From: a virus
Lineage: Duplodnaviria; Heunggongvirae; Uroviricota; Caudoviricetes
Direction: 5' to 3' (one strand)
DNA length: 19,189 bases
IMG/VR virus record: IMGVR_UViG_2872180393_000006
Coordinates: 1-19,189 of that record
Below are positions 8,729 to 17,993 of this stretch, piece after piece. Each line of letters starts with the position of its first letter. The first letter of the stretch is position 1. The notes below the pieces were generated by a model. That model did no database searches. It had not been told where the DNA came from and saw only the letters and a list, made by a program, of their open reading frames with translations. Position numbers and translations under genes: made by a program.

Positions 8729-9031
8729 TTAACGCGTATTTTTCAGCGACTCCTGTGCAAAATACGCTGTTGCTTTTTTTAATATATCTCGCTCAAGGCG
8801 AGCTTCATTTAACGCCTTACGCAGTTGCAGAATTTCAGATTCCAGTTCAGCCACCGTGCGGGAACCAGGAGTACCGAGCCCTTTTCTGGCGGCGGTAACC
8901 CATTGTCCTAAAGTGCCTTCAGGAAGGGATAATCGGGAAGCGCCTTCACTGATCGAAAGTTGATTTTCAGGAACCGTTCTGACAGCTTCGGCTTTGAACT
9001 CTTTAGAGTAACGTTGGGTTTTTCTGCTCAT
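8729..9031 (-). CDS. IS600 OrfA (HTH transposase subunit)
   Basis: 100 aa, MSRKTQRYSKEFKAEAVRTV..., ending shortly after the A7 slippery site. Confidence 0.9.
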   Translation of the reverse strand: MSRKTQRYSKEFKAEAVRTVPENQLSISEGASRLSLPEGTLGQWVTAARKGLGTPGSRTVAELESEILQLRKALNEARLERDILKKATAYFAQESLKNTR

Positions 9032-9280
9032 TATTAGCTCCTTCTGATGCCATTCTATTTCAGGAAGGAGTGTCCGTTAAACTCAGGCTACCTCACAGCC
9101 GAAACCTCCAGCGCCTCCGGCATGGGCAATGATGCCACCGTCGAACTCTCTCCAGTTGCTGGACGAAACGTTCTCGGTATCCGGGACGGAATCATCAGCG
9201 ACCAGACAGCATTGAGAATGCTTCAGGAGTACATCAGGATCCAATGCCTTGGGGGTGCCCCTATTAAGTTGTCAAGCATG

Positions 9281-10475
9281 TTATGACCCCTGCGGGGTAT
9301 AAAAAGTCCCGTCGCGCATCATGGCGAACAGAACGTCGCAGCGTCGTCTCGCCAGGGCGATAAGCGCCTGATTGTGTCGTTTTCCCTGACTCATTTTGCG
9401 GGTGTAGTAAGCCCTGGAGAGCGGATCCCTGAGCGCGGCGAAGGCCGACAGGAACAACGCCCGTTTGAGAGCTTTATTACCCCGTCGCGAGGGATGCTCA
9501 CCGCGTATTGACGAGCCGGATCGCCGAGTTACCGGCGCAAGGCCAGCATAAGCAGCGAGATGTGCGGCAGAGGCGAAGGCGCGGCAGGCGACCTCGGTGA
9601 GGAGTCTGGCTGCGGTCCTGACACCGACTCCGGGCATACTGGTCAGGACCGGGTAAAGAGGGTGAGCAAGAACTCGCTGTTCTACCTCAAGCGCCACCTC
9701 GTCTCTTTGCTTACGCAGCGTGATGAGCTGGAGTGCCAGACGTGGCAGTACTACGGCAGCGGCATTCGTGCCGGGAACGACGACGGTTTGTTCGGCCAGT
9801 GCCTGAGCTATGTCTGCTGCAAGGCGTTTACCCAGACGAGGCGCAAGTTTGCAGAGCTGGGCTGCCAGCTTCTTCTCACCCAGCGAAGCGAGTTTTTCTG
9901 GTGAGGGATATCGCTGGAGAAGATCGAGTACCGCCGGGTGCTCAAGTCTCGGACCGAGAACGCGCTCCAGTGCCGGATGTATCTGGGTCAGAAGGCCGCG
10001 GATACGGTTGCTGGCCTGCGTTGTCTGTGCGGCAAGATCATCATCGACCGCAGAGCATGGAGAGTTCGGCGATTTGCTCGTCAGCCAGTTTCAGCGTGCG
10101 TAGCGCGTGAGGCAGGGTACGGGCAGCTTCGGCAATGATGGCAGCGTCACGAGCATCAGTTTTAGCTTCACCGGCGTGTAAGTCGGCTATGCGGCGCATG
10201 GCCAGTCCAGGGAGGTATCCGACAAGGACTCCTTCTGAGCGGGCAACGGCGACAGGTAACGCACCGATGGTAGCTGGCTGATCAACAACCAGCAGTATCT
10301 GACCATGTTGTTTCAGGTCAGATATTAGCGACCTGAGTTTGTTTTCGTCGTTGGGTAATGCTTTATCGAACAGGCGTTTACCTGAACGATTAATGGCAAC
10401 AGCGTGATGCGTATCTTTACCGACATCAACGCCGATAAAGACCTGGACGGATTCGTAATCGCTGGATTCGGTCAT
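9281..10475 (-). CDS. IS110-family DEDD transposase, reading frame interrupted at the same place as in copy 1
   Basis: ORFs 10041..10475 and 9281..9697 give the same 144-aa and 138-aa products as in copy 1. Confidence 0.8.
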
Positions 10476-10484
10476 TCTGTCTCC

Positions 10485-10684
10485 CTTGTATATGGGTTAA
10501 CCAGATAACCACGGGGAGCAGGTACCGGCATCCACGTTACAGACGGTCCCGGCAAAAGTGCCTGACCTGACCCCTATTAGCGGTTACCAGCGCCCCACCA
10601 GACCCGGTGACATCACCCCCCGGATCATGGACGACTGGGGGCAGTAATCATGCCGGGTCTGGCTGGCTAACACCCCATTATAAG
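10485..10684 (-). ncRNA. Predicted bridge RNA region of IS110-family copy 2
   Basis: Same left-end non-coding sequence as copy 1; see feature 3600..3800. Confidence 0.3.
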
Positions 10685-11541: not shown

Positions 11542-12806
11542 TGAGGTAGCCTGAGTTTAACGGACACTCCTTCCTGAAATAGAATGGCATCAGAAGGAGC
11601 TAATAATGAGCAGAAAAACCCAACGTTACTCTAAAGAGTTCAAAGCCGAAGCTGTCAGAACGGTTCTTGAAAATCAACTTTCGATCAGTGAAGGCGCTTC
11701 CCGATTATCCCTTCCTGAAGGCACTTTAGGACAATGGGTTACCGCCGCCAGAAAAGGGCTCGGTACTCCTGGTTCCCGCACGGTGGCTGAACTGGAATCT
11801 GAAATTCTGCAACTGCGTAAGGCGTTAAATGAAGCTCGCTTTGAGCGAGATATATTAAAAAAAAGCAACAGCGTATTTTGCACAGGAGTCGCTGAAAAAT
11901 ACGCGTTAATCGAACAATGGCGACAACAATTTCCCATTGAAGCGATGTGTCAGGTATTTGGTGTATCCAGGAGCGGTTATTACAACCGGGTACAGCATGA
12001 ACCCTCAGACAGAAAACAAAGTGATGAGCGGCTAAAACTGGAGATTAAGGTGGCACATATCCGCACTCGCGAAACATATGGAACCCGGCGGCTCCAGACG
12101 GAGCTGGCAGAGAATGGCATCATCGTTGGTCGTGACCGACTGGCACGTCTTCGTAAGGAGCTAAGGCTACGCTGTAAGCAGAAACGCAAGTTCAGAGCGA
12201 CTACGAACCCGAACCACAATCTGCCAGTTGCGCCAAATCTGCTGAACCAGACGTTCGCTCCTACAGCACCAAATCAGGTCTGGGTGGCGGACCTGACGTA
12301 TGTTGCCACACAGGAGGGATGGTTGTACCTCGCTGGCATCAAAGATGTTTATACGTGCGAAATTGTCGGCTACGCCATGGGAGAGCGCATGACAAAAGAG
12401 CTGACAGGTAAAGCCCTGTTTATGGCGCTCAGGAGCCAGCGCCCACCTGCCGGGCTAATCCACCACTCTGATCGAGGTTCACAGTACTGCGCATACGATT
12501 ACCGGGTCATACAGGAGCAGTTTGGTCTGAAAACATCAATGTCGCGTAAAGGTAACTGTTACGACAACGCTCCGATGGAAAGCTTCTGGGGAACGCTGAA
12601 AAATGAGAGCCTGAGCCACTATCGTTTTAATAACCGGGATGAAGCCATCTCAGTAATACGGGAATACATTGAGATTTTCTACAATCGTCAGCGTCGTCAC
12701 TCTCGTCTGGGGAATATCTCCCCGGCAGCCTTCAGGGAAAAATATCATCAGATGGCTGCTTAAAAAAAGAACAAATGGTAGTGTCCGCTATTGCCAGTAC
12801 ACCTCA
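11542..12806 (+). mobile_element. IS600 (IS3 family), copy B, 1265 bp, divergent from copies A and C
   Basis: Same termini as the other copies. It has several amino-acid differences and an A8 run at 11857..11864 instead of A7. Confidence 0.9.
11606..12763 (+). CDS. IS600 transposase, orfA and orfB fused in-frame (385 aa) by one extra A in the slippery run
   Basis: The ORF track shows a single 385-aa ORF reading ...ERDILKKSNSVFCTGVAEKYALIEQW...MCQVFGV..., which is the sequence expected for the frameshifted OrfAB product. Confidence 0.85.
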   Translation: MSRKTQRYSKEFKAEAVRTVLENQLSISEGASRLSLPEGTLGQWVTAARKGLGTPGSRTVAELESEILQLRKALNEARFERDILKKSNSVFCTGVAEKYALIEQWRQQFPIEAMCQVFGVSRSGYYNRVQHEPSDRKQSDERLKLEIKVAHIRTRETYGTRRLQTELAENGIIVGRDRLARLRKELRLRCKQKRKFRATTNPNHNLPVAPNLLNQTFAPTAPNQVWVADLTYVATQEGWLYLAGIKDVYTCEIVGYAMGERMTKELTGKALFMALRSQRPPAGLIHHSDRGSQYCAYDYRVIQEQFGLKTSMSRKGNCYDNAPMESFWGTLKNESLSHYRFNNRDEAISVIREYIEIFYNRQRRHSRLGNISPAAFREKYHQMAA

Positions 12807-15289: not shown

Positions 15290-16135
15290 ATGTTGAATGT
15301 AGCTATTGAAAACCAGAACGGGTGGAATTATAGTGCACCTGCACCTCATAAAACGGGTGCCGGGATTGCTACCCCGAAGTCATTCACGGCGCATAACCGC
15401 GCTCAGGCGGTTTTTTTATGCGTAATGCACAGCCACATTCAAATTATGGTGGGGCGTGCGGGGCAGTCGCAAGACTGGCCGGGTTCCGTGATGACCGGTT
15501 GTAGCAACCCTGTACGTCTCACCACCCATGAGATTGCTACCTCCGGTGGTGAGTTAATCAAATTCATCGCGGAGGCTGCCATCATGGCTACTACCCTTTC
15601 TCACCCTTGTGTAACCGTAGAAAACGGTCGCGCTGTCACTACGTCTGTTGCGGTTGCAGAGTTCTTCCACAAACGACACGACAATGTGTTACGTGCCATC
15701 GCAAATATTGAATGCTCAGATAAATTTACTGCCCTCAATTTTGAGGCGAGCGAATACACCGACTCAACCGGGCGCAAACTCCCAATGTACCAAATCACCA
15801 AAAACGGCTTCGTTTTCCTGGTTATGGGATTCACTGGCAAAAAAGCCGCTGCATTCAAAGAAGCCTACATTGCTGAGTTCGACCGCATGGAGGCCGAACT
15901 GCGCCAGAATAACACCCCACCTGCTGACAAGATGATTCCGGGTGATGGTCGCACTCTGGTTGTTCACTTCGACAAATTCGGCAATGTCGAATTCACCGAA
16001 ACCGTTCCTGATGGCGCACTGGTCTGTAGCCTGGAGACTTTCCGGTTTTATCTGGAAAAACAGGGATGGACTCTTGTTAACCGGGGCGCAATTAAAAATA
16101 TGACTGTGGAACAATTACTCAAAATTCATTGTTGA
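15290..16135 (+). CDS. Phage regulatory protein Rha family; the Rha domain starts near residue 100, so the start may instead be the ATG at 15584
   Basis: VTTSVAVAEFFHKRHDNVLRAI...FTALNFEASEYTDSTGRKLPMYQITKNGFVFLVMGFTGKKAAAFKEAYIAEFDRMEAEL is a classic Phage_pRha signature. ATG 15290 has an AGGAAAGAG SD and ATG 15584 has a GGAGG SD; the N-terminal 98 codons have no recognisable domain. Confidence 0.6.
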   Translation: MLNVAIENQNGWNYSAPAPHKTGAGIATPKSFTAHNRAQAVFLCVMHSHIQIMVGRAGQSQDWPGSVMTGCSNPVRLTTHEIATSGGELIKFIAEAAIMATTLSHPCVTVENGRAVTTSVAVAEFFHKRHDNVLRAIANIECSDKFTALNFEASEYTDSTGRKLPMYQITKNGFVFLVMGFTGKKAAAFKEAYIAEFDRMEAELRQNNTPPADKMIPGDGRTLVVHFDKFGNVEFTETVPDGALVCSLETFRFYLEKQGWTLVNRGAIKNMTVEQLLKIHC

Positions 16136-16606: not shown

Positions 16607-16732
16607 ATGATTACCAGTTATGAAGCCACTGTTGTAACTACTGATGACATTGTTCACGAGGTTAATCTGGAAGGAAAGCGTATTGGCTACGTGATTAAGA
16701 CAGAAAATAAAGAAACCCCATTCACTGTGTGA
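16607..16732 (+). pseudogene. N-terminal stub (41 codons) of a ydfE-like gene, cut by IS600 copy C
   Basis: ATG at 16607 with a strong SD (TAAGGAG, 6-nt spacer) encoding MITSYEATVVTTDDIVHEVNLEGKRIGYVIKTENKETPFTV. The stop codon TGA (16730..16732) is the first three bases of the IS600 terminus. Confidence 0.55.
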
Positions 16733-16754
16733 GGTGTACTGGCAATAGCGGACA

Positions 16755-17591
16755 CTACCATTTGTTCTTTTTTAAAGCAGCCATCTGATGATATTTTTCC
16801 CTGAAGGCTGCCGGGGAGATATTCCCCAGACGAGAGTGACGACGCTGACGATTGTAGAAAATCTCAATGTATTCCCGTATTACTGAGATGGCTTCATCCC
16901 GGTTATTAAAACGATAGTGGCTCAGGCTCTCATTTTTCAGCGTTCCCCAGAAGCTTTCCATCGGAGCGTTGTCGTAACAGTTACCTTTACGCGACATTGA
17001 TGTTTTCAGACCAAACTGCTCCTGTATGACCCGGTAATCGTATGCGCAGTACTGTGAACCTCGATCAGAGTGGTGGATTAGCCCGGCAGGTGGGCGCTGG
17101 CTCCTGAGCGCCATAAACAGGGCTTTACCTGTCAGCTCTTTTGTCATGCGCTCTCCCATGGCGTAGCCGACAATTTCGCACGTATAAACATCTTTGATGC
17201 CAGCTAGGTACAACCATCCCTCCTGTGTGGCAACATACGTCAGGTCCGCCACCCAGACCTGATTTGGTGCTGTAGGAGCGAACGTCTGGTTCAGCAGATT
17301 TGGCGCAACTGGCAGATTGTGGTTCGGGTTCGTAGTCGCTCTGAACTTGCGTTTCTGCTTACAGCGTAGCCTTAGCTCCTTACGAAGACGTGCCAGTCGG
17401 TCACGACCAACGATGATGCCATTCTCTGCCAGCTCCGTCTGGAGCCGCCGGGTTCCATATGTTTCGCGAGTGCGGATATGTGCCACCTTAATCTCCAGTT
17501 TTAGCCGCTCATCACTTTGTTTTCTGTCTGAGGGTTCATGCTGTACCCAGTTGTAATAACCGCTCCTGGATACACCAAATACCTGACACAT
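16755..17591 (-). CDS. IS600 OrfB with a 6-codon C-terminal extension caused by loss of the native stop
   Basis: 278 aa ending ...YHQMAALKKNKW, against ...YHQMAA in copy A; TAAAAAAAG in copy A reads TTAAAAAAG here. Confidence 0.85.
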   Translation of the reverse strand: MCQVFGVSRSGYYNWVQHEPSDRKQSDERLKLEIKVAHIRTRETYGTRRLQTELAENGIIVGRDRLARLRKELRLRCKQKRKFRATTNPNHNLPVAPNLLNQTFAPTAPNQVWVADLTYVATQEGWLYLAGIKDVYTCEIVGYAMGERMTKELTGKALFMALRSQRPPAGLIHHSDRGSQYCAYDYRVIQEQFGLKTSMSRKGNCYDNAPMESFWGTLKNESLSHYRFNNRDEAISVIREYIEIFYNRQRRHSRLGNISPAAFREKYHQMAALKKNKW

Positions 17592-17626
17592 CGCTTCAAT
17601 GGGAAATTGTTGTCGCCATTGTTCGA

Positions 17627-17929
17627 TTAACGCGTATTTTTCAGCGACTCCTGTGCAAAATACGCTGTTGCTTTTTTTAATATATCTCGCTCAAGGCGAG
17701 CTTCATTTAACGCCTTACGCAGTTGCAGAATTTCAGATTCCAGTTCAGCCACCGTGCGGGAACCAGGAGTACCGAGCCCTTTTCTGGCGGCGGTAACCCA
17801 TTGTCCTAAAGTGCCTTCAGGAAGGGATAATCGGGAAGCGCCTTCACTGATCGAAAGTTGATTTTCAGGAACCGTTCTGACAGCTTCGGCTTTGAACTCT
17901 TTAGAGTAACGTTGGGTTTTTCTGCTCAT
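17627..17929 (-). CDS. IS600 OrfA
   Basis: 100-aa product identical to that of copy A. Confidence 0.9.
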   Translation of the reverse strand: MSRKTQRYSKEFKAEAVRTVPENQLSISEGASRLSLPEGTLGQWVTAARKGLGTPGSRTVAELESEILQLRKALNEARLERDILKKATAYFAQESLKNTR

Positions 17930-17993
17930 TATTAGCTCCTTCTGATGCCATTCTATTTCAGGAAGGAGTGTCCGTTAAACTCAGGCTACCTCA

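Follow-up and report, generated by a model that had tools for sequence, protein, structure and literature searches.

One of three IS600 copies in a decayed Shigella boydii prophage carries an eighth adenine in the slippery run at which its two reading frames meet, and this base joins orfA and orfB into a single transposase gene. Judged by its recurrence in five assemblies, the eight-adenine form (A8, against the usual A7) is a genuine, heritable variant and not a homopolymer error. The account which best combines our observations, and which we consider likely, is that a heritable change from A7 to A8 has come to stand at at least seven loci, that it would invert the ratio of the element's protein products, and that gene conversion exchanged the alleles at the locus described here. 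This locus lies in a window of 19,189 nucleotides (the whole stretch of DNA that was analysed), which belongs to the S. boydii chromosome (CP026846.1, about 2.82 Mb) and whose features are collected in Table 1.

Table 1. Features of the window and of IS600 copy B, numbered from the first nucleotide of the window.
Feature	Position	Strand	Description
IS600 copy B	11542-12806	+	1265 bp (canonical copies 1264 bp); ends 5'-TGAGG…CCTCA-3'; flanks AAG / ACC
A8 run	11857-11864	+	slippery heptamer A_AAA_AAA plus one A; in-frame TTA AAA AAA AGC
Fused orfAB	11606-12763	+	385 aa, uninterrupted; HTH_Tnp_1, HTH_21, DDE/rve core
Predicted hairpin	11867-11907	+	9-bp main stem GCGUAUUUU/AAAAUACGC, starts 6 nt past the run; unchanged in copy B
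Substitution P21L	11667		element position 126; copy B versus copies A and C
Substitution L79F	11840	+	T (C in other copies); element position 299; marker tightly linked to A8
Substitution W128R	11987	+	C (T in other copies); element position 446; 'SRSGYYxW' motif of HTH_21
IS600 copy A	7832-9095	-	1264 bp; A7 (T7 on the + strand, 8774-8780); separate orfA 100 aa, orfB 272 aa
IS600 copy C	16730-17993	-	1264 bp; A7 (17672-17678); separate orfA 100 aa, orfB 278 aa
ISSfl4 (IS110-family) copies	3643-5032 and 9251-10640		inverted repeats, 100% identical
isrK	15341-15417	+	Rfam 64.8 bits; inside the 5' part of Ash/Rha ORF 15290-16135
C4 antisense RNA	15442-15529	+	Rfam 79 bits; inside the 5' part of Ash/Rha ORF 15290-16135

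The sequence at window positions 11857-11864 is AAAAAAAA, and in a three-way alignment of copy B with copies A and C, both of which are A7, the extra A is the sole indel in the element. The initial annotation had proposed this additional base and the resulting in-frame fusion of orfA with orfB, and the alignment and the 385-aa open reading frame bear it out on both points. Its remark that copy B differs at several residues also holds, in that three substitutions were found (P21L, L79F and W128R), although L21 prevails in IS600 and it is the P21 of copies A and C that is derived. A second, compensating frameshift is absent from copy B, whose reading frame runs through without interruption. C446 of A8 copies corresponds to T445 in an A7 copy. 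Pfam models matched the fused protein at HTH_Tnp_1 (1.2e-20), HTH_21 (2.6e-13) and rve (5.8e-26), with additional matches to rve_2 and rve_3, and residues D229 and D289 are invariant in an alignment of 96 relatives. The imperfect terminal inverted repeats, TGAGGTAGCC…GTACACCTCA, end in 5'-TG…CA-3' and are the same in copies A, B and C. Two runs of eight adenines were observed in the window against 1.55 expected by chance; the significance of the present one is its location on the IS600 slippery site, not its length per se.

Copy B is more than 99% identical to annotated copies of IS600 (IS3 family, IS3 group; Shigella and E. coli) and is like them in its ends, its orfA and orfB content, the position of its A run and the hairpin downstream. 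It departs from IS600 in length (1265 rather than 1264 bp), in the run (A8 rather than A7), in having one ORF in place of two, with OrfAB encoded without recoding, and in carrying L79F and W128R. The IS3 layout, in which orfB overlaps orfA in the -1 frame, is present in copies A and C and missing in copy B, which is IS600 on every structural criterion bar this defining two-frame arrangement.

In the textbook view, programmed -1 frameshifting acts as the brake on transposition of IS3-family elements. The zero frame of an A7 copy reads …ATA TTA AAA AAA GCA… and OrfA terminates at 100 aa; if ribosomes slip by -1 on A_AAA_AAA, the result is …DILKK/SNSVFCTG…, that is, OrfAB. Read in its zero frame, copy B arrives at the identical junction (…DILKK/SNSV…) without recoding, so that at the junction its product is the same as what an A7 copy makes by -1 frameshifting. 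The hairpin (folding energy -13.1 kcal/mol, z = -2.05) is the presumed stimulator of -1 frameshifting, and its spacing in copy B conforms to the rules for IS3-family stimulators of Sharma et al. (PMC4066793), who also describe an IS cluster with A_AAA_AAA as a proven frameshifter. No Rfam frameshift-element family matched at the run site. A -1 signal is predicted in copy B as well, comprising an X_XXZ_ZZN heptamer in phase (TT-A AAA AAA) and a hairpin that begins 6 nt downstream, inside the 4-10 nt range of those rules.

Ordinary translation of the A8 allele would thus yield the full OrfAB transposase. As the heptamer is in phase and the hairpin intact, -1 frameshifting should carry a minority of the ribosomes into an unproductive frame, where the computed product is an OrfA-like protein of 96 aa made up of 86 shared residues and KQQRILHRSR (…DILKK/KQQRILHRSR). 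Authentic OrfA would arise only through +1 events or from mRNA in which transcription had dropped one A. The usual ratio, with OrfA major and OrfAB minor, is therefore expected to be inverted, as reported for an engineered IS2 fusion (A6G to A7G), where OrfAB predominates and a band of OrfA persists through frameshifting (PMC3219604). In ISSau2, transposition driven by OrfAB is reduced by OrfA (PMC5771124), and the A8 allele may, by analogy, be expected to be less restrained in transposition.

The IS2 construct and the A8 allele have in common one base added in the slippery run, OrfAB as principal product (expected, in the allele) and a short OrfA-type protein arising by -1 frameshifting (PMC3219604). 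They differ in that the allele arose naturally, lies on the chromosome in multiple copies and is inherited across strains, and in that its predicted short product would bear a novel 10-aa tail in place of the OrfA C-terminus. Fused-frame OrfAB constructs similar to that of IS2 also exist for IS911, IS3 and IS150. The fused IS600 allele may be seen as a natural counterpart of such laboratory mutants, and would be expected to work alike. Elements dependent on slippage (the 9A/8A elements, PMC1088944; IS1447, PMC6211511) likewise have an A run at the junction of orfA and orfB. Their frames, however, are separate in the DNA and fused only in slipped mRNA, and the run usually comprises nine A, whereas copy B has eight and its DNA is already fused; slippage, of which an 8-A run is already capable in some organisms (PMC1088944, PMC6211511), would undo the fusion.

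The case for a real allele rests on how often it recurs. A contiguous 1158-nt gene for the exact 385-aa protein, which public collections list under S. boydii accessions, stands at eight places (seven loci) in five S. boydii assemblies, namely CP026846.1, CP119446.1 (strain CIP 56-18, Viet Nam), CP049278.1 (strain 600690, Bangladesh), JARKNR01 and PSSR01. Each assembly yielded one or two such copies, and all eight places carry a 1265-bp element combining A8 with T299 and C446. Perfect 3-bp target duplications (GAT, ATG, GGA, ATC and TGG) and intact ends were found at five of the seven loci. The same assemblies also contain A7: in copies A and C of the window, with which the initial annotation had already contrasted copy B, and in the copy adjoining locus L008. 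On pINV of strain 600690 every one of the 11 IS600-type runs is A7, and CIP 56-18 has A7 at the window locus and A8 at loci L001 and L002. These A8 observations all come from NCBI long-contig assemblies, taken as deposited. In short-read assemblies (Logan/ENA) the A8 allele was not seen, as expected, because IS copies collapse there. In databases, A7 and A8 copies can be told apart by span and junction, since the PGAP slippage join of A7 copies covers 1157 nt and reads '…DIFKKSNS…', while contiguous A8 genes cover 1158 nt and read '…DILKKSNS…'.

Exact-sequence look-ups place the allele among related forms. The L79/R128/A7 combination occurs in several copies in these same S. boydii genomes, and the R128 OrfB was found on 30 contigs, S. 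dysenteriae included. F79/R128/A7 is rare, being found on one contig, and a separate 100-aa OrfA with F79 occurs in S. boydii 5216-82; the F79/W128 combination was not found in these look-ups. The A8 allele in all likelihood belongs to an S. boydii IS600 sub-lineage. The simplest order of changes would be W128R, then L79F and then A8.

How the allele may move was examined at a single shared insertion. An orthologous insertion in CIP 56-18 was located through the window's ydaT::IS600 junction protein, and its junctions are the same in both strains (GTAGCGTAAG, the IS, ACCCGCCGCC). The CIP 56-18 orthologue is C299/A7/T445 (L79/W128), and the rest of the IS is identical to copy B. Elsewhere in the 6.4 kb compared between CP026846.1 and CIP 56-18 (L063 versus L064), the only differences are one SNP, in approximately 4.5 kb of unique flank, and the loss of 2 bp within ISSfl4. 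Copy B had initially been annotated as an older or independently acquired copy. An insertion with the same junctions which differs only at position 299, the run and position 446 is at odds with both proposals; three linked differences in a tract of at least 148 bp point instead to gene conversion. At this locus the A8 allele would have replaced, or been replaced by, the canonical tract, and exchange at a resident copy by gene conversion between IS600 paralogues is the most likely route. The linkage of F79 to the run is, taken alone, uninformative as to transposition or conversion, because the two are only about 17 bp apart. Short-read polishing could in principle homogenise repeats, thereby mimicking conversion or creating the A7 consensus copy of CIP 56-18. 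The locus with both its flanks was also sought in plasmid and E. coli genome collections, which matched only in the IS itself because the window, being S. boydii chromosome, is absent from them.

Copy C provides further evidence, of the same comparative kind, that IS copies probably change faster than their flanks. Its stop near 16774 is altered from TAA to TTA, which extends OrfB and OrfAB by 6 aa (to 278 and 391 aa), whereas the CIP 56-18 orthologue has the TAA stop, and C rather than A at element position 789, between flanks that differ by one SNP. Orthologous IS600 copies that differ within near-identical flanks, and markers that are reshuffled among copies, are likewise features of concerted evolution and gene conversion in multicopy IS. 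The present case differs in that the tract carries a frame-fusing regulatory mutation, so that conversion would alter the expression mode of the resident copy.

What the allele does once established may be read in several ways. It is possible, and we entertain the idea tentatively, that the A8 allele is hyperactive and self-propagating, with constitutive, cis-acting OrfAB raising transposition and so accounting for at least seven loci. The five loci with perfect duplications and intact ends are consistent with this, as is the return of most A8 loci for one assembly only; further encouragement comes from fused-frame IS3-family mutants, which chiefly make OrfAB (PMC3219604), and from the lowering of OrfAB-driven ISSau2 transposition by OrfA (PMC5771124). 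However, target duplications survive gene conversion and do not reveal the inserting allele, so that the five duplications are no proof that A8 elements transposed. In the sole orthologous comparison, moreover, one allele has taken the place of another while the insertion site stayed the same; at position 790 the A8 copies form a mosaic, with every one of the four pairings of run length and this polymorphism represented, and one or two exact-protein copies per assembly do not suggest runaway expansion. Retention of target duplications was considered as a sign of recent insertion and rejected, the difference between A8 (5 of 7) and A7 (15 of 32) not being significant in so small a sample.

Alternatively, the allele could be crippled or neutral, through L79F and/or W128R or through weak expression, and spread passively by conversion or by mobilisation in trans; this too we regard as conceivable but somewhat doubtful. 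Position 128 lies in the conserved SRSGYYxW motif and is W in 73 of 95 diverse relatives, so a mostly conserved residue is changed and the fused protein may be impaired. Maintenance of the allele in several strains with no massive gain in copies, together with conversion at the window locus, is in keeping with passive spread. Against impairment, R occupies position 128 in 2 of the 95 relatives and in an approximately 90%-identical S. flexneri plasmid element, and neither the ORF nor the catalytic core nor either end is damaged. Several copies of the R128/A7 parent are present in S. boydii and in S. dysenteriae; R128 elements have hence multiplied, and R128 is probably tolerated by the element. 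For L79, considered in relation to the OrfA leucine zipper, OrfA is covered by only about eight relatives in the alignment.

A broader proposition joins constitutive expression to conversion: the fused allele would act as a constitutive transposase in S. boydii and, spread by conversion, would turn regulated copies into unregulated ones. We consider this rather improbable as a whole. If true, conversion spread would constitute a previously undescribed route by which an IS family escapes frameshift control, and such escape would drive the decay of Shigella genomes as well as the expansion of IS within them; these genomes have been shaped by expansions of IS600 and other IS (PMC7373316). That population study of Shigella IS dynamics makes no mention of such an allele, and a frame-fused natural IS600 allele was not found in the literature searched. 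The interest of the allele lies in its being a natural, multi-copy variant that would remove the brake, is kept in several strains and appears to move between resident copies by conversion. It may serve as a ready-made natural test of how far frameshifting limits transposition in vivo.

The run might also act as a phase-variable switch, with replication slippage toggling between a regulated A7 and a constitutive A8 state. The F79/R128 lineage does include both A7 and A8 forms (P0169; P0172 in strain 5216-82), and sporadic A8 copies occur on other backgrounds. We nonetheless think this unlikely: at the sole orthologous locus examined the change in length travels with two flanking SNPs, as in conversion, A8 is very rare overall, and a run of 8 nt is short for high-rate switching.

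The rarity of A8 is apparent from a scan of reference genomes, in which all 42 IS600 copies were A7. Counts of A8 were taken from ranked full-length, 100% matches of an 80-nt BLAST query, the identity bands of the same query having been rejected as a counter on account of confounding by partial matches. Full-length exact matches to A8 were returned for three E. coli complete-genome records and three plasmids, all on other IS600 backgrounds. Neither GTDB reference genomes nor JGI metagenomes contained a match to the exact A8 pattern; S. boydii is evidently absent as a GTDB reference genome. In E. coli O121 (2014C-3655) A8 is a singleton, present in one of nine clonal genomes at the same locus, and represents either a mutation private to that genome or an error. 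What sets the S. boydii allele apart in kind from such sporadic cases is its linkage to SNPs together with its recurrence.

These sporadic cases bear on the proposal, raised in the initial annotation as the alternative, that the true run of copy B is A7 and the eighth adenine a sequencing or assembly error. Long-read assemblies commonly carry homopolymer indels; the singletons in E. coli O121 2014C-3655 and two S. flexneri plasmids resemble noise or private mutation, and A8 occurs on other IS600 backgrounds in CP026877.1, whose accession belongs to the CP0268xx series together with CP026846.1, so that some noise in the series is possible. We reject this explanation as highly improbable, given that A8, T299 and C446 occur as a linked set at eight places in five assemblies, two documented strains from different countries among them, that A7 copies are correctly read within those same assemblies, and that the 6.4-kb comparison of CP026846.1 with CIP 56-18 revealed no further homopolymer indel.

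The CP026877.1 record (a 5.13-Mb chromosome, L067) contains contiguous A8 genes on both L79/W128 and L79/R128 backgrounds (P0168 and P0170), reflecting either repeated origin of A8 there or homopolymer noise in the assembly. Another 385-aa IS600 transposase, P0007 (WP_094096816.1, S. flexneri / S. boydii), has the junction '…DILKKHNSV…', which would point to another single-nucleotide change at the frameshift site, and thus perhaps to a further type of natural frame fusion. Annotation of the PGAP style masks the difference between the alleles, A7 and A8 copies both appearing as a 385-aa 'IS600 family transposase'. The join used for A7 copies also introduces an artefactual F84 into database OrfAB sequences (P0003, P0004, P0166, P0167 and others); '…DILKKSNS…' is the sequence expected from slippage on A_AAA_AAA and also that of the natural A8 ORF, which identifies the F84 of '…DIFKKSNS…' as an artefact.

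The prophage in which copy B resides is decayed, retaining an integrase, Ash/Rha, a cI-like repressor, ydaT and tail or baseplate genes, and the remnant holds three IS600 and two ISSfl4 copies. A 3-bp target duplication is absent at all three IS600 copies of the window (A, B with AAG/ACC, and C). A simple inversion between IS copies was considered and rejected, as no pair of copies has the left triplet of one equal to the right triplet of the other. The region appears, from its sequence, to have undergone IS-mediated rearrangement or deletion. Relative to the CIP 56-18 orthologue, both ISSfl4 copies share a 2-bp (CT) deletion, near 4235 and 10048, which splits the transposase of approximately 398 aa into ORFs of 144 and 138 aa, a defective allele thus being present in two copies. 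A further IS600 sequence was encountered in an assembly labelled 'Streptomyces sp. UG1' (L030, NZ_JBNGGG010000135.1), as a 1380-bp contig with a coverage of 1.3 that is almost certainly enterobacterial contamination. Finally, the position of isrK and C4 within the Ash/Rha ORF corresponds, as predicted from the Rfam matches, to an immunity RNA arrangement of the P1/P7 type.
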